IMG/VR virus record: IMGVR_UViG_3300042887_000389
Span: 1-61,230 of that record
DNA from: a virus
Lineage: Duplodnaviria > Caudoviricetes
DNA: 61,230 bases
Direction: 5' to 3' (one strand)
In this document: piece by piece, positions 128-6,433 of the stretch
How the letters are laid out: each line of letters starts with the position of its first letter
Numbering within the stretch: position 1 is the first letter of the stretch
Notes under the pieces: model-generated
The model's database searches: none
What the model was told of the DNA's origin: nothing
Seen by the model: the letters and a program-made list of their open reading frames with translations, nothing else
Position numbers and translations under genes: made by a program

Positions 128-1363
128 GTCCCTGCTCTGCCAGTAACTAGTAGCACTGAAGTCAATGTTGTAGTACACCAAGTACTTGGCATGCCTGAGG
201 CTTATCCCCTCCCTGCCACTAACTATCTGAAGAGCAATGCTTTTATCTGTACTCTCAAATATACTAAGCTCAGTTGTAAGTTCATCACCAAACACATCCT
301 TCAGGGCAGACAACTCTTCCTTAAATTTATAGAAGATGCCTATCTTACTTCCTTGAAATTTTTGTTTAATGAACTCAGCCTTGGTGGTGTCAAGCACCAT
401 GCTGTTACCGCTCTCAAACTTAATCGTACCGCTGCACAACTGGTGTACCTTCATCATTAACTTTGCTGCCGTGTCCGCCAATATCACCTCAGTCTTACCC
501 TCAATCACTAGGTCCCTCTCCAACTTCTTTATAAGTTGCATGGTAGACTCCTTCATCTCAACCTCTAGTATCTCCTCAGTAACTGATGACACGAAGCCTG
601 CCTCCTTCTGTGAGAAACTTATCATGTATGGCTTCATCTCATCTATGATGCTGTCCATCCCACCGCTGTAGTCATTAATGAATAGCCCATTGATGTTCTT
701 CTGCTTGACCTTCACGTGCACCTCAGCAAACTTATAGAAGTTAACGAACCGCTTGAATGGGTTTCCAGGTATGCCGTACACCTGGTGGTACATCTGTGAG
801 TAACTCTCTGGTGTTGGTGTCCCTGACATGAGTATCACCTTAGGTCTATACTTAGAGATGGCGTGTCGGATCATTACAGCCCGATTGCTGGGCTTTGGGA
901 ACGCACCTATACTATGTGCCTCATCGATAATTATTAGGTCAAATTTGAGGCTGTCTACCACGTGGTGGAGGCTCTCATAGTTGACCACCTTTATCTGGTA
1001 ACTAGGCTGTAGCAAATCATAGTCCTTCTCGATACTGCCGATGGCCTTCTTCTTTGTCACGAACAGCACAGACTTTGCTCCGCACTCACTGGCTATGCCA
1101 AGGCTGGTCAAGGTCTTGCCTGTCCGTACCTCCATCGCTAGGTACACGAAGCCATGTTCTTGTATGGCTTGTGCCCCCTGCGATATTATGTCCCTCTGGT
1201 ATGGTCTAAACTCCATGCTTCTTGTTCCGTAATGAGATAGGCAATTCTTTATATTAGTTACTACATCTGGGTCGGCAGACTTGTCCTTCGATACAACATT
1301 GTAAAGTATACCGCAGTAGCGTAGCATCTGCTCATCCGAATAGCCGGGTACTCTCTCAATCAT
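1..1363 (-). CDS. SF2 (SNF2-like, DEAH) helicase, ~455 aa; continues across the circular junction and stops at 61099-61101 (absent from ORF track)
   Basis: Partial manual translation from ATG 1363 (alternative ATG 1216, same frame): FRPYQ (Q motif), MEVRTGKT (Walker A), IIIDEAH (Walker B), LMSGTP (motif III); C-terminus ...HFKNR* lies past the junction in the same frame. Confidence 0.9.
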   Translation of the reverse strand, partial: MIERVPGYSDEQMLRYCGILYNVVSKDKSADPDVVTNIKNCLSHYGTRSMEFRPYQRDIISQGAQAIQEHGFVYLAMEVRTGKTLTSLGIASECGAKSVLFVTKKKAIGSIEKDYDLLQPSYQIKVVNYESLHHVVDSLKFDLIIIDEAHSIGAFPKPSNRAVMIRHAISKYRPKVILMSGTPTPESYSQMYHQVYGIPGNPFKRFVNFYKFAEVHVKVKQKNINGLFINDYSGGMDSIIDEMKPYMISFSQKEAGFVSSVTEEILEVEMKESTMQLIKKLERDLVIEGKTEVILADTAAKLMMKVHQLCSGTIKFESGNSMVLDTTKAEFIKQKFQGSKIGIFYKFKEELSALKDVFGDELTTELSIFESTDKSIALQIVSGREGISLRHAKYLVYYNIDFSATSYWQSRDRMTTKDRSFNHVYWVFSKGGIEHDVYKTVIKKKDYTVNHFKN

Positions 1364-3746
1364 TTGAATGAATTATGATCCACCTACCCATCATGTCACG
1401 TCCCTCCTCAGGAGCAACGCCATACTTGAACATTCCGTACGATACCAGCCACTTGTAGAACTTGGTTCTGCTGATGGTCATCTTAGACTTTGGTCCGTAG
1501 TCAGGGTACTCGTTGACGAAGTCATTGTACAGGTCATTCTTGTACAGCCTTACCTCTGGCTCTAGCGTATTGTTCTTAGGCTGACCCTCCACCAGACCAC
1601 ACCACTCGATGAAGTCATGAGCTGTCTCCGCAGACAATTGTCTAATCTTTAGGTTGACAAACTTACTTCTCACTAGACCAGTGCTCAAGTAGTTAGCCAA
1701 GCATCTGATCATGTAGTTGTCAAACTCACACCAATCATCATCGTTCCAATCACCGAACATCAACTTACCAAACTCATCCAAAGGAGTGAATGTCTTGGAG
1801 TAGTACTGGTGTAACTCAAGCTCCCACTTACGTCTAGCAAATGAGTTGCCCGATCCCTTGATGGCATAGTTGGTAGTGATTGCAATCTTAGGAGACTTGC
1901 TGAATGGTATCTTGATTGCATCCTTGTTCTTCTTCTCTAGCGTTAGCCCCTCAGTTACTACACTGAATAGTCTCTCGAAGTCAAAGTACTTCTTCACGTC
2001 ATCGAACACTAGGATCTGCGTATCGGCAGACACAAGTTGGTAGGCGAAGCTCCGCTCAAAGGTGAATGACTTGCCATCAATAGTTACCACCTTCTTCATT
2101 CTACTTAATGCGTTCATGAACAGACCCTTACCTGTGCCACCCTCAGGGTTGTCGCTTATCACCTCATCGTTGAGGATCACAGCAGGACAGAATGAAAGGT
2201 TCTTGTATCCATGTAGTAGGAACCCAATGGTGCTCTCCATCGCCTCGACTCTACCATCATCATCCCCACAGATGTTGCGTATAAACTTCCTGTAACTGCA
2301 CGCATCTGTCACATCACACATGTTAAAGTTGCGGTCAATCACGTGGTCATTCCACACGTATCCACCTAGGTCTAGGTAGTCAATAGGCTTCACCTGATCC
2401 TTTGTCACCTGCACAGCACAGTTCTTGTAGTACAGGTAGGATGTGTCCTTGGTATCCTCGATGAAGAAGATGTCTATGGTTGATAGCATGGACAGGAACT
2501 CCTCCTTAAAGAACCTAGTCTGGTCAGCGAAGTAGTTGTACACCATGATGTCATCCAACTCAAGTAGATGGTTCAGCACGTAGTCCTTTATCTCCTTCTC
2601 AGATGTATGGTCAATCAAGTTATTTGTAACCTTCACAAACACGTAGTTCTTACCACCCTCTGGGCAGTACTTGTAGAACCCATTGTCCTCAAGGAACTGC
2701 TTGAACTGAATATGTACTATTCGAATGACTCCCTTCTCGCTCTTTTCCCAGAATGTTTTCTTTGCGTTCTCCTCCTCCACCTTGGTCAAGACTGCTTCGA
2801 TAGTATCCGTATCCAGTTGGGAGTCCTGTAGTTGGATACGTATCTCTTTTTTTGATACACCCCTCCTAAGTTTAGCCTTGATGGAGTTAATCTTCTCTTC
2901 ATCCTCGTAGTACTTGGTACCAAAGTTGGTGGTGTTCCGATAGGCTGAGTCAATTGTTGTTGCTATCTCACGTACAGAGAAGTCATCTGTGGCGTACTGG
3001 TTGAGCACGTAGGATGCAAGGCTCTTGTTGATGCCGAAGTCATTGAACGCCATCGCTAGGATGTACACGTTATGGTTCCGCTGTCCCTCCATCATTGGGT
3101 ACTTCTTCACCCACCACTTGACTAATATGTCAACCACCTTGTTCTCATCAGTGATAGGTATGGTTGGCTTGTCCTTGAACTTACTCACCTCTGTGTACTC
3201 TGGCTCCTCCAATACGTCCCATACAGATGAGTTCTCATTCACATGGATGAGTGGATCATAAGACTCGTAGCATACACGTGATACGTTCTTGCTAGTCTTG
3301 TCAAAGTATGGGCTCTTGAAGTACTTCTCTAGGCTGTTGAAGTAGTTGATGTGGTTGTCTTGGTCTGCTGGTATCTTTACCAATACCTTTAGCCCGTTCC
3401 CGGACGGGCTAATGAATACTGAGTAGACGTACTTGTTCTTAGACAAGTTCTCCTTGTCCTGTAGCAAGTCCTTCTGGTTCTGATACCCATCAAAGTCCAG
3501 ACATATCAGACCACTATGCTCCGTGATGGAGGCATCGGATCGCTTGGTGAACTTACCGCTGAAGCATATCGCTGGCAACTGCTTCTTTAGTTCTTGTCGC
3601 TCAGGCTTCCGCTTCTCTGCCCTGATCTTCTTGACCAGTTCCTTAGATGACCCAGACTTAATTCGCTCTAGGATTACGCCAACATTCCTGTGGAACGGAG
3701 CACTTGTCTCCTTAATACTCTGGAATATTGTTACTTGATATGTCAT
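1356..3746 (-). CDS. Primase-helicase (VirE-N/BT4734-like N-terminus, primase C-terminal domain, P-loop NTPase)
   Basis: LICLDFD and FISPSGNGLKV (VirE-N type), EGQRNH (PriCT-like), GGTGKG Walker A, LVFDD Walker B, ITTN. Confidence 0.85.
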   Translation of the reverse strand: MTYQVTIFQSIKETSAPFHRNVGVILERIKSGSSKELVKKIRAEKRKPERQELKKQLPAICFSGKFTKRSDASITEHSGLICLDFDGYQNQKDLLQDKENLSKNKYVYSVFISPSGNGLKVLVKIPADQDNHINYFNSLEKYFKSPYFDKTSKNVSRVCYESYDPLIHVNENSSVWDVLEEPEYTEVSKFKDKPTIPITDENKVVDILVKWWVKKYPMMEGQRNHNVYILAMAFNDFGINKSLASYVLNQYATDDFSVREIATTIDSAYRNTTNFGTKYYEDEEKINSIKAKLRRGVSKKEIRIQLQDSQLDTDTIEAVLTKVEEENAKKTFWEKSEKGVIRIVHIQFKQFLEDNGFYKYCPEGGKNYVFVKVTNNLIDHTSEKEIKDYVLNHLLELDDIMVYNYFADQTRFFKEEFLSMLSTIDIFFIEDTKDTSYLYYKNCAVQVTKDQVKPIDYLDLGGYVWNDHVIDRNFNMCDVTDACSYRKFIRNICGDDDGRVEAMESTIGFLLHGYKNLSFCPAVILNDEVISDNPEGGTGKGLFMNALSRMKKVVTIDGKSFTFERSFAYQLVSADTQILVFDDVKKYFDFERLFSVVTEGLTLEKKNKDAIKIPFSKSPKIAITTNYAIKGSGNSFARRKWELELHQYYSKTFTPLDEFGKLMFGDWNDDDWCEFDNYMIRCLANYLSTGLVRSKFVNLKIRQLSAETAHDFIEWCGLVEGQPKNNTLEPEVRLYKNDLYNDFVNEYPDYGPKSKMTISRTKFYKWLVSYGMFKYGVAPEEGRDMMGRWIIIHSND

Positions 3747-3769
3747 AAATGTCAGATGAATGTTGTAAT

Positions 3770-3900
3770 TATGCCGTGTAACTTACTGATAATTAACTCT
3801 ATGTCGATTATGTCAATTTAAAAACCTTTCTAGATTCAAAGAAATAATAATAATATATAGAGAATATATATATATATAGGGAAAAGTAAAAATGACATGG
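3770..3900. repeat. Origin-like element copy A (imperfect dispersed repeat with (TA)n core)
   Basis: Colinear similarity to 13256-13388; ATGTC/GACAT motifs flank an AT-rich core; directly upstream of the primase gene. Confidence 0.75.
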
Positions 3901-3907
3901 ACTAGAG

Positions 3908-3934
3908 AAAAAAAAGAGGGGGAGTTACCCCCTC
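3908..3934 (-). terminator. Intrinsic terminator
   Basis: GAGGGGG-agtta-CCCCCTC hairpin with an A8 run on the + strand (U-tract on -) just after the 3941 stop. Confidence 0.8.
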
Positions 3935-3940
3935 AGATTT

Positions 3941-4210
3941 TTAGAATGGAGACTCCCATTTATTCTCATCTACCTTCTTGCTTACTTGGTAGGTGTTGAG
4001 AGTTACGTTAAACTTGTCGGCAGTCTTGCCCTTCTTGATTTCAAGGTTGACCCATCCATCCTTTGTATTCTTATTGATGAAGTCAACTGCCTCGTCTGCT
4101 TTGATTGATAGTCTTACAACGATGAACTCTGGATCCTTTTCAGTTCTCTTTGCGATGAATCCGTTTGCGTAAATTGTTTCTTTCTTTTCCATTTGATTAA
4201 AGGGTTTCAT
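3941..4210 (-). CDS. Small conserved phage protein, possibly ssDNA-binding
   Basis: GWVNLEIKKGK core, acidic/aromatic C-terminus (WESPF), position in the recombination module. Confidence 0.5.
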   Translation of the reverse strand: MKPFNQMEKKETIYANGFIAKRTEKDPEFIVVRLSIKADEAVDFINKNTKDGWVNLEIKKGKTADKFNVTLNTYQVSKKVDENKWESPF

Positions 4211-4928
4211 TTATAAAGTAATTGTCAATATCATCTGTTGGGTTTGGTCCGAAGTACCTGTAGTACACCTCCATTGCTCGCTCTACCTTGGCTTCTCCGC
4301 CCTTCACGAACTCTTCGGATGGTCTGAACAGACCGAGCTGCTCAGATTCCTTGTCAATAACGTAAAAGTATAGAGGCTTTCCAAATAATTGCTGGTAAAT
4401 GTAGCACTGAGAGTCATAGTTGTAACTCTTTGCAGACCACCTGAACTTGTTGATGTCTGATGTAGTCTTCAGATCAATGATTGAATCAGCAGTGACGATG
4501 TCAGCCTTCGCTTTCCATTGCAGTCCCTTAATCTCACCAATGGTTGGCTCCTCGTATAGGTTGCCATCCCTGTAGATGTCATCGTAGAACTGGAGGTTGG
4601 ACTTCATTACACTAGCAAGACGAACAATCTCATCGTACTCCTTGGTCAACATGGCGAACTCAAGACCAGAATCTTCAAGGTACTTCTTGTACTCCTTTGT
4701 ATTGCGTGTACTGACATCCACCTGTGGCACGTTTACAGCCTTCTCAGGCTCTAGAATTAGTTGATGGAATAGTCTTCCCTCATGAAAGTGTTTTGAGTCC
4801 TCTGAGCGGGCTCTAAATCGCTTGGGATTTGTGAGCAATGCATAGATGTCTGAGTTGGATAGGTAGTACTTACCCTTACCATTGTAGTACTCATCATCAT
4901 CCCTGAGTTCATCGATTATTGTATTCAT
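4197..4928 (-). CDS. PD-(D/E)XK exonuclease, RecE/ExoVIII (DUF3799)-like
   Basis: YLSNSDI, GRLFHQLILEP, KAKADIV, IIDLKTT, YDSQCYIY motifs. Confidence 0.85.
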   Translation of the reverse strand: MNTIIDELRDDDEYYNGKGKYYLSNSDIYALLTNPKRFRARSEDSKHFHEGRLFHQLILEPEKAVNVPQVDVSTRNTKEYKKYLEDSGLEFAMLTKEYDEIVRLASVMKSNLQFYDDIYRDGNLYEEPTIGEIKGLQWKAKADIVTADSIIDLKTTSDINKFRWSAKSYNYDSQCYIYQQLFGKPLYFYVIDKESEQLGLFRPSEEFVKGGEAKVERAMEVYYRYFGPNPTDDIDNYFINETL

Positions 4929-5820
4929 ATTGTTCTATAGTTTTAAATATTTGATAGACTACCTGTGGTACTATGGCATTTCCTCCTGCCATGATTGATT
5001 CTTTTCTCCATTTAGAAAAGGTAATAGCGTCCAGTCTACTGGAAAGCCCATCATCTCCATCACAAATTGGGGGGACAGATGGGAACATTTCGAAGTCTGC
5101 TCTTGGTAATTTATTGCATCCTTCAAGCTGTTTGTCATCGGGTTGTGACCCTCCCTCGGAGCGTTCCCTCTCCTTCCTGCATTCTTGTCCGATGATACTG
5201 GAGTCGGAAGCATTCCCATTGATGCCATTTGCTTCAAAGGATTCTGAACATTTACTCCCTTCAGTGCATGTCTTTCCTTTGCTTTCTGAAATGTCTCCGG
5301 TTTCTTTGGACTGTTCCAATCGTACGCACATGGAGTGGGCAACGAACCATACCCTTTGCCTGAGATGGGGAGCGTTGACGCTTGCAGCTGGAAGTATAAA
5401 CGGTTGGACTTCGTACCCTTCAGATTCCAGGTCAGCTTGCACCTCTTCGAATACCATCCCTCCATTCCAACTAATAAGCCCACGAACGTTTTCGCCCACA
5501 ACCCAGCGTGGTTTGATTTCTCGAATTGCTCTAAGCATTTCAGGCCAGAGATGTCTGTTATCCTCCTTGCCGAGTCGCTTCCCTGCTGTTGAGTAGGGCT
5601 GACATGGGAATCCTCCTGTGATGATGTCAATTTCTCCTCTGTAAATAGAGAAGTCTGTCTTGGTAATGTCATTGTGTGATATTGAATTAGGCCAATAATA
5701 TTTTAAGACTCTCTGACCGAATGGATTCCATTCACAATGGAATACGTTCTCCCATCCCATCCAATCGGAGGCCAAATCAAAGCCCCCGATTCCACTGAAT
5801 AGTGATCCATGTCTAAGCAT
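4909..5820 (-). CDS. DNA cytosine-5 methyltransferase, large (alpha-like) polypeptide
   Basis: SLFSGIGGF (I), GGFPCQPYS (IV), ENV (VI), HLRQRVWF (VIII), GGNAIVPQV (X); no motif IX in this frame. Confidence 0.92.
   Translation of the reverse strand: MLRHGSLFSGIGGFDLASDWMGWENVFHCEWNPFGQRVLKYYWPNSISHNDITKTDFSIYRGEIDIITGGFPCQPYSTAGKRLGKEDNRHLWPEMLRAIREIKPRWVVGENVRGLISWNGGMVFEEVQADLESEGYEVQPFILPAASVNAPHLRQRVWFVAHSMCVRLEQSKETGDISESKGKTCTEGSKCSESFEANGINGNASDSSIIGQECRKERERSEGGSQPDDKQLEGCNKLPRADFEMFPSVPPICDGDDGLSSRLDAITFSKWRKESIMAGGNAIVPQVVYQIFKTIEQYEYNNR
4971..5672 (-). CDS. Nested alternative-frame ORF: probable second (beta-like) subunit of the C5 methyltransferase
   Basis: 233-aa ORF fully inside the MTase gene; ends LSPQFVMEMMGFPVDWT (motif IX-like); two LPTP-initiated repeats. 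Confidence 0.75.
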   Translation of the reverse strand: MTLPRQTSLFTEEKLTSSQEDSHVSPTQQQGSDSARRITDISGLKCLEQFEKSNHAGLWAKTFVGLLVGMEGWYSKRCKLTWNLKGTKSNRLYFQLQASTLPISGKGYGSLPTPCAYDWNSPKKPETFQKAKERHALKGVNVQNPLKQMASMGMLPTPVSSDKNAGRRGNAPREGHNPMTNSLKDAINYQEQTSKCSHLSPQFVMEMMGFPVDWTLLPFLNGEKNQSWQEEMP

Positions 5821-6433
5821 TAACCAAGTCGGCTATTTCTTTCTTGAGTTCTACAGACATGTCATACTTGGTGGTCAACTGCTTGCCAATGAATGCAAGA
5901 CCCTTGCTCTTGTTCTCAGCCACATACTTTAGCACCTTCTTCCAATCATCACTACCCTTCACCAAGTTAACTAGTGCTGTAGGTCTGCTCTCCTCCACCA
6001 CCTTTGGCTCACTCTCTGGCAAATCTTCACCAGCGTAGATGTAGATGCCCAATCCAAACATGGCTAGGTTCTTAACCAAGCATCGCATCATTGTCTTGTT
6101 GATGTCAAACGTGGTGGCTGCATCCACCTGCTTGTCTCCGTACTTGGTAGCGTAGGAGTAAGGCTTCTTCTTCATGCTCTTGTTCTTGCCATCCATGACA
6201 GGCAACCACATCTCAAGTGTCTGACCCTCAATAGTTACCTCACTATGGCACATGAATCCAAGGTCATCATCGTACTCCGTAGGCAGGATCTTATAGGATG
6301 CATCTGGGCACTCCTTCTTAGTCACAGACCATGCCCATGCCCATGATAGGTAGGTGAGGTTGTCCTTCTTCTCAACATGCTCGTTCACATTGATGGCTGA
6401 GAGTCTCTCGAATACTGATTTTTCTGATTTCAT
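5813..6433 (-). CDS. ssDNA-annealing protein, Sak3/DUF1071 family
   Basis: LTYLSWAWAW, MWLPVMD, DINKTMMRCLVKNLAMFGLGIYIYAGEDLP. Confidence 0.9.
   Translation of the reverse strand: MKSEKSVFERLSAINVNEHVEKKDNLTYLSWAWAWSVTKKECPDASYKILPTEYDDDLGFMCHSEVTIEGQTLEMWLPVMDGKNKSMKKKPYSYATKYGDKQVDAATTFDINKTMMRCLVKNLAMFGLGIYIYAGEDLPESEPKVVEESRPTALVNLVKGSDDWKKVLKYVAENKSKGLAFIGKQLTTKYDMSVELKKEIADLVNA

Follow-up and report, generated by a model that had tools for sequence, protein, structure and literature searches.

Two-chain methyltransferases and the locus under study

Among DNA (cytosine-5) (C5) methyltransferases, the passages of PMC3404938 that we draw on name only M.AquI and M.EcoHK31I as natural two-chain enzymes. 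M.AquI is described there as split in the variable region, with motifs IX and X on the small subunit. In M.EcoHK31I, beta's coding sequence lies wholly inside alpha in another frame, both chains are needed for activity, and truncation of the beta N-terminus weakens association progressively (relevant passages of PMC2836561). When that beta frame was interrupted, later in-frame starts also had to be taken out. These passages and those of PMC3404938 place motifs I–VIII and X, together with a predicted recognition domain, on the alpha chain of M.EcoHK31I, and motif IX on its beta chain. The first-pass annotation of the locus studied here had invoked M.EcoHK31I as a heterodimer whose motif IX comes from an alternative frame, which agrees with both sources as far as those passages go. 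We analysed this locus in a complete virus record of 61,230 bp bounded by direct terminal repeats (IMGVR_UViG_3300042887_000389; hereafter, the window), in which two overlapping open reading frames (ORFs), alpha and beta, very probably encode a heterodimeric C5 methyltransferase of the M.EcoHK31I kind, with the whole small domain on beta.

The locus resembles M.EcoHK31I, with which we compared it by description, in that beta is wholly nested in alpha on the same strand and in another frame (+1 relative to alpha), and in that motifs I–VIII and X are on alpha and motif IX is on beta (Table 1). The weakened association of N-terminally truncated M.EcoHK31I beta can be set beside the interface predicted here, which begins at about beta residue 57. 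By contrast, the recognition domain of M.EcoHK31I is assigned to alpha in the passages describing that enzyme, whereas here a conserved modular region is found on beta, and the middle of alpha is a predicted disordered linker. M.EcoHK31I, the alpha/beta enzyme reportedly described by Lee, Kam and Shaw in 1995, comes from a restriction-modification system of E. coli HK31 (YGGCCR). The phage gene is an orphan with no nuclease partner gene adjoining it on either side, and no E. coli record was among its 70 phage and 8 plasmid matches.

Other described enzymes are less similar. As in M.AquI, there are two polypeptides; however, the M.AquI genes do not overlap. The M.AquI type does not fit, because motif X is on the large chain, alpha, and the small chain is nested. 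The large-domain fold of alpha is like that of M.HhaI and M.HaeIII, from which the locus differs in having the small domain on a separate chain. Bacillus phages (SPR, phi3T and the rho11 group) encode multispecific single-chain C5 methyltransferases with mapped specificities, in which tandem units of ~40–50 residues lie between motifs VIII and IX. Tandem units are also present here, although on a separate nested chain and with a putative role in recognition.

The coordinates, lengths and motif content of the two overlapping ORFs given in the first-pass annotation were all reproduced, on the minus strand. Alpha carries FSGIGG (residues 8–13), GGFPCQ (69–74), ENV (110–112), QRVWFVA (155–161) and GNAIVP (280–285). 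Beta carries LPTPCAYD (111–118), LPTPVSSD (155–162) and LSPQFVMEMMGFPVDWT (199–215), which are the two LPTP repeats and the motif IX-like stretch reported earlier for the nested frame. The Pfam model PF00145 matched only residues 4–172 of alpha (expectation value [E] 2.7e-43; 149.1 bits, cut-off 22), such that no recognised domain occupies the place of the target-recognition region and motif IX. TIGR00675 (dcm) was likewise confined to residues 6–202 (137.3 bits, cut-off 100.65), and phrog_363 matched residues 1–300 (E 1e-72). Across 45 representative loci (defined below), the invariant motif residues of alpha were G10–G13, P72, C73, Q74, E110, N111, V112, R156, F159, G280, N281 and A282. Neither Pfam nor the alignment of these representatives placed motif IX or a conserved recognition region between motifs VIII and X of alpha. 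The earlier description of the middle of alpha as lacking both elements therefore stands; its description as low-complexity is better replaced by that of a hypervariable, predicted-disordered linker that is open but unconserved. In this linker, 79% of residue comparisons between representatives differ, and its length tracks the number of beta modules in the alignment.

A sequence profile aligned alpha residues 4–168 with M.HhaI residues 15–178 (E 1.4e-28). The alpha model, built from a 45-row alignment, has a Rossmann-type domain, with a predicted local distance difference test score (pLDDT) of mostly 84–94 over residues 1–169, a segment with pLDDT <50 and no secondary structure over residues 170–267, and a confident helix at residues 285–302. 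Foldseek searches with this model returned M.HhaI as the top hit (2uz4_A; E 4.4e-13, 32% identity over 164 columns), with M.HaeIII also detected (1dct_A; E 1.3e-12). By family score, motifs and modelled fold, alpha is thus assigned as the large catalytic domain of a C5 methyltransferase.

Pfam and NCBIfam had no match to beta; its family match was to phrog_1008 (E 2.4e-19), which carries the annotation "DNA methyltransferase". No precomputed Pfam domain was present in 120 beta relatives among the matches listed. Relatives are nonetheless abundant. A search with beta returned 899 full-length relatives at E<=1e-3 among 987 candidates, and an exhaustive profile search returned 12,976, 5,200 and 1,276 cluster representatives at E<=1e-3, 1e-10 and 1e-30, respectively. 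The 13 beta relatives that we inspected start as beta does (MTSxKQISLFTEE...) and end as it does (...MGFPxxWTxLPFLNGETNQSKQEETQ). A profile of 45 beta chains had 0 hits at E<=10 among solved structures, and AlphaFold2 gave a poor fold for beta alone (mean pLDDT 49.7; predicted template modelling score 0.24).

Openness and selection of the two reading frames

We assessed the two-frame layout in three sets of loci: the best 80 of 269 viral relatives, picked by tblastn with beta; a distant set of 77 loci, comprising 3 annotated phages and 74 bacterial-genome loci, mostly of Bacteroidota; and 45 representatives, obtained by reducing 73 complete loci, including the window, to 56 with distinct DNA and then to those below 90% alpha identity. 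The alpha frame was stop-free over the entire beta ORF in 80/80 viral loci. The third sense frame contained 13–28 stops per viral locus, with 18 in the beta span of the window. The layout was kept in 71/77 distant loci. Interruption of the nested frame in close homologues, which the first-pass annotation had named as evidence against a two-chain enzyme, was not observed; both frames are open in 80/80 viral and 71/77 distant relatives.

We compared the number of stops in the representatives with that expected by chance. Between motif VIII and motif IX (4843 codons), we observed 0 alpha-frame stops; 267.8 are expected when beta codons are redrawn synonymously from the family's own usage, which is a conservative null. 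By contrast, the third frame had 391 stops over the same stretch, with 307 expected. The alpha linker was open through 50–172 codons in 45/45 representatives. Reciprocally, synonymous reshuffling of alpha led to an expectation of 186 beta-frame stops between the beta ATG and motif VIII (101–136 codons per locus), and 0 were observed. Since we took the first ATG in the open stretch as the beta start, the informative result here is the conserved position of the start rather than the absence of stops: the beta ATG was at alpha codon 44–59 in 44/45 representatives, and at codon 24 in the remaining one. In the window alone, synonymous reshuffling of beta left alpha open over the 90-codon linker in 0.5% of 1000 trials, and reshuffling of alpha left beta open over 111 codons in 0.7% of trials. 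Openness of the two frames is beyond chance.

Sequence variation indicated which of the two frames is under selection along the gene. We measured differences per site by codon position for pairs with <=35% divergence. Variation at the alpha-only ends was highest at alpha position 3 (0.39 and 0.50), and the same was true for beta residues 2–56 (0.358), as in pure alpha coding. The pattern was mixed over beta residues 57–112 (0.247 at alpha position 3 and 0.178 at beta position 3). In the LPTP modules and motif IX, variation was highest at beta position 3 (0.354 and 0.25, respectively), and in the beta tail over motif X it was again highest at alpha position 3 (0.199). Alpha synonymous divergence agreed with the codon-position pattern, at 0.43–0.48 for the alpha-only ends, 0.37 for alpha residues 50–110, 0.28 for residues 111–170 and 0.13 for residues 246–283. 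Because the selected frame switches along the gene, the beta leader is carried along by alpha, and the alpha linker by beta. Both frames are constrained in two stretches: alpha motifs VI–VIII, which overlap beta residues 57–112, and the alpha piece preceding motif X, which overlaps beta motif IX.

Predicted assembly and competing explanations

The first-pass annotation had called for a joint structure prediction of the two chains, with M.HhaI as the reference. Three runs for the complex gave an interaction prediction score from aligned errors (ipSAE) of 0.87, 0.90 and 0.90, versus 0.00 for the best of 3 controls, and, as reported above, the alpha fold matched that of M.HhaI. The runs shared >=82% of contacts, with partner pLDDT >=63. 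The ipSAE mark was attained in 58/80 solved complexes and 2/110 mismatched pairs, counts that are only rough because custom alignments were used for the complex job. The predicted interface comprises beta residues 57–98, 153–163 and 183–222, and alpha residues 11–16, 34–42, 116–164 and 238–301. In the model, beta residues 57–98 meet alpha residues 116–164 and 290–301, beta motif IX meets alpha motifs I and X, and the C-terminal piece of alpha (residues 246–303) touches beta; no contacts with alpha are confidently predicted for the beta leader (residues 1–56) or the extra modules. The interface predicted on beta is exactly those parts that selection marks as beta's own. The prediction supports binding of the two chains, although it falls short of showing it.

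The open frames, the alternating selection and the predicted complex support the earlier proposal of a two-chain enzyme from ~700 bp of dual-coding DNA, and suggest the following scheme. The 303-aa alpha chain would supply the large catalytic domain, with motifs I–VIII, a linker that is translated but unused and whose sole requirement would be the absence of stop codons, and a motif X helix that would close the S-adenosylmethionine (AdoMet)-binding domain. Translation of beta would begin in the +1 frame from a separate ATG within alpha, with a weakly constrained leader of ~56 residues, followed by a small domain made of the conserved piece at residues 57–112, one or more LPTP modules of ~44 residues, and motif IX. 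Motif IX is predicted to pack on alpha motifs I and X, and beta residues 57–98 on the alpha motif VI–VIII region, such that assembly would restore the cleft between the two domains of monomeric enzymes such as M.HhaI. The enzyme would most likely methylate the phage's own DNA. Protective self-methylation is likely, as we infer from the position of the gene in a replication/recombination module with no adjacent nuclease partner.

We considered four other explanations, all of which fit poorly with the full-length openness of both frames and the switching selection. The first is that both chains are made and beta acts independently, as a DNA-binding regulator or an inhibitor of a host nuclease, with alpha inactive or differently targeted. 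The lack of confident alpha contacts for the leader and extra modules is consistent with this idea, as are beta chains of up to 610–660 aa, whose many modules exceed the need of a small domain. However, beta has a canonical motif IX, which is absent from alpha and is modelled against alpha motifs I and X, and the overlap means that beta is always inherited with alpha. We consider an independent beta unlikely.

Alternatively, a monomeric enzyme could arise as a single polypeptide through two programmed frameshifts, +1 after motif VIII and -1 back before motif X. Motifs follow one another in the DNA (I–VIII, modules, IX, X) as they do in monomeric enzymes, and one distant locus (L153) indicates that a fusion of alpha motifs I–VIII to beta can exist. 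Frameshifting would need only short overlaps at its two shift sites, whereas beta is open in 45/45 representatives from a conserved ATG ~110 codons upstream of the first shift, and the openness of alpha through the linker would be left unexplained. Moreover, the proven precedent, M.EcoHK31I, uses two chains according to the passages cited above. Programmed frameshifting is thus highly improbable. A similarly slim chance attaches to the proposal that only alpha is real, with the nested ORF arising untranslated from the codon and motif constraints on alpha and being propagated in databases by gene callers. In its favour, alpha motifs IV and X largely determine the first 56 and the last 17 residues of beta, over which variation peaks at alpha position 3, and the absence of a Pfam or NCBIfam model for beta is consistent with such a by-product. 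By contrast, the beta position 3 peak in the modules and motif IX, together with the near-invariance of motif IX where alpha is so variable, indicates that selection acts there on beta and not on alpha, and alpha alone would have neither motif IX nor a conserved recognition region. Lastly, two compensating frameshift errors or mutations in a monomeric gene, giving a pseudogene or assembly artefact, are scarcely credible despite single-indel-like frame changes in some relatives (L144, L153 and P0127), since the same +1 layout recurs across the viral and distant loci, in independent assemblies and cultured phages, and none of 8 longer matches, 4 of which were inspected, was a genuine in-frame fused (monomeric) relative, although this last point is weak evidence.

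Several observations weigh against a nested two-chain enzyme, or limit what can be said for it. There is no Shine-Dalgarno-like sequence upstream of the beta ATG in the window; starts of this kind are usual for Bacteroidota. Openness of beta in the 80 viral loci partly follows from their selection by tblastn with beta, which does not apply to openness of alpha. The layout is also not absolute, with six of the 77 distant loci lacking it. Two of these are at contig ends (L108 and L125), and one has a 5'-truncated alpha (L110). One (L119, 1137–2156) has a single alpha-frame stop exactly inside motif IV (GGFP, stop, PCQPYS) with beta intact, which could be an error, a pseudogene or a case of readthrough. 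The other two (L144 and L153) have a coherent, single-indel-like frame change partway through. Of the 71 passing loci, one (L157) is a remnant, and in another (L133) a stop interrupts the beta leader. Errors or decay of the copies could account for these exceptions. The complex score is a measure of model confidence obtained from custom alignments, and part of the pass may reflect likeness to monomeric C5 methyltransferases, because the predicted contacts resemble the interdomain contacts of solved monomeric enzymes. Our analysis shows the ORFs, their conservation, the frame-specific selection and the alpha fold; we infer that both chains are translated, that they assemble into an active enzyme, that beta recognises DNA and that the enzyme is protective.

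The frame change in L153 has a distinct form. In this metagenome-assembled bacterial contig (1305–2440), a single frame runs from alpha motifs I–VIII into the beta modules and motif IX, and motif X lies in a third frame. An error or a decaying copy could account for this, as could a natural split of a different kind.

LPTP modules and distribution of the nested layout

We next compared the LPTP-started modules in 169 beta chains with motif IX. There were 1–8 modules per chain, mostly 2 or 3, with a median length of 44 residues, and the 169 chains had 79 distinct architectures. Because module number and architecture vary among chains, the LPTP units are modular, as had been proposed from the window alone. 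Single-module chains were the shortest (L018). It is the terminal module, adjacent to motif IX, that is conserved, and it lies within the predicted interface (residues 153–163 and 183–193). Single-linkage clustering placed 355/514 modules in one cluster, which is too coarse to define module types. Two very long beta chains, P0130 (610 aa) and P0190 (660 aa), contain 5 and 7 stretches, respectively, that match the beta profile; the corresponding alpha frames would need >600 open codons. The longer matches that we inspected were long beta chains, with the exception of P0127, a 431-aa metagenome protein and the sole PF00145 carrier among the 8. It has an alpha N-terminus with motif I, shifts into the beta frame before motif IV and is without a catalytic motif; it is probably a frameshifted copy.

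By analogy with the Bacillus phage enzymes, beta might be a combinatorial recognition subunit, consisting of an alpha-docking core (residues 57–112, the terminal LPTP module and motif IX) preceded, ahead of the terminal module, by 0–7 swappable 44-residue modules, each of which would add or change a DNA target. We put this forward tentatively, and regard it as possible rather than probable; the multispecificity that the first-pass annotation had suggested for the LPTP units draws on the same analogy and is equally speculative. The anti-restriction role that it gave these units is likewise conjectural. Every module would have to be stop-free in the alpha frame, because alpha would be translated straight through it. 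If beta works in this way, one catalytic chain could be re-aimed by shuffling modules and exchanging them between phages, and the multispecific Bacillus phage methyltransferases would have in this family a counterpart that is overprinted and made of two chains. No other heterodimeric form of C5 methyltransferase would come close to it in abundance, and the published assignment of the M.EcoHK31I recognition domain to alpha might need revisiting.

The hosts of phages and prophages with the nested layout include Bacteroidota, Bacillota and Leptospira, among others, and the layout is the rule for the family represented by the 12,976 beta clusters found at E<=1e-3. In Paenibacillus phage Bloom (L081; MH454077.1), both nested coding sequences (BLOOM_56 and BLOOM_57; 978–2033 and 1180–1884) carry the annotation DNA cytosine methyltransferase, and GGAGG is found 12 nucleotides upstream of the nested beta ATG. 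The paper on these phages counts two cytosine methyltransferase genes, and the passages of it that we used do not discuss nesting (PMC6070908). In Bacteroides phage BKO1-TP3 and Lactobacillus phage Lc-Nu, the outer frame alone is annotated; across the annotated records that we inspected, beta was missing or only sometimes annotated. DNA-level matches in cultured phages were short and partial (9 records, none covering 80% of the query).

Our literature search found no description of a wider nested methyltransferase family. The principle is established through M.EcoHK31I; the breadth of the family, the missing beta model and the modular nature of beta remain under-described. Because beta has no family model and is often unannotated, annotation and methylome prediction routinely meet a methyltransferase that seems to have no recognition part. 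As a clear natural example of extended dual coding, the locus is also useful for studies of overprinting because two stretches are selected in both frames, including the DNA of catalytic motifs VI–VIII. Passages of PMC2836561 describe how naturally separate catalytic and recognition chains have been put to use in targeted methylation.

Gene neighbourhood

The methyltransferase gene lies between genes for a Sak-like annealing protein and an exonuclease VIII-like protein, which it overlaps by 8 and 20 bases (Table 1). Across 1356–6433 of the minus strand, the start and stop codons of adjacent genes overlap, forming a tightly packed replication and recombination module. There is no tRNA gene in the whole virus.

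Table 1. Positions in the window of the two nested ORFs, their segments and motifs, and genes nearby.
Feature	Position	Strand	Remarks
Alpha ORF	4909-5820	minus	303 aa + stop; 912 bases; assigned as C5 DNA methyltransferase catalytic chain (motifs I-VIII, linker, motif X)
Alpha residues 1-170, folded catalytic domain (model)	5311-5820	minus	pLDDT mostly 84-94; M.HhaI alignment; invariant columns
Alpha motif I	5782-5799	minus	
Alpha motif IV GGFPCQPYS	5590-5616	minus	
Alpha ENV	5485-5493	minus	
Alpha motif VIII QRVWFVA	5338-5358	minus	
Alpha residues 171-245, linker	5086-5310	minus	Stop-free; sequence and length hypervariable
Alpha residues 246-303, conserved C-terminal piece and closing helix	4912-5085	minus	Invariant columns P247 to K293
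Alpha motif X GNAIVP	4966-4983	minus	
Beta ORF	4971-5672	minus	233 aa + stop, nested; putative small-domain chain (recognition modules and motif IX)
Beta residues 1-56, leader from conserved ATG	5505-5672	minus	Own sequence little constrained
Beta residues 57-112, overlapping alpha motifs VI-VIII	5337-5504	minus	Both frames constrained
Beta residues 111-154, first LPTP module (LPTPCAYD...)	5211-5342	minus	From sequence and module analysis
Beta residues 155-198, second, terminal LPTP module (LPTPVSSD...)	5079-5210	minus	P156, T157 and P158 nearly invariant
Beta residues 199-215, motif IX LSPQFVMEMMGFPVDWT	5028-5078	minus	Invariant columns L199 to T215
Sak-like annealing protein	5813-6433	minus	One flank of the methyltransferase gene
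Exonuclease VIII-like protein	4197-4928	minus	Other flank of the methyltransferase gene
Primase/helicase-like protein, 796 aa	1356-3746	minus	Near the methyltransferase gene

The same DNA is also covered by an antisense ORF of 207 aa (4973–5596, plus strand). We rejected this ORF as a third gene, as the antisense frame was stop-free in 0/45 representatives. Two antisense frames are stop-poor in the representatives, with a mean of 6.5–7 stops, and the antisense ORF in the window is probably a by-product of stop avoidance in the two sense frames.

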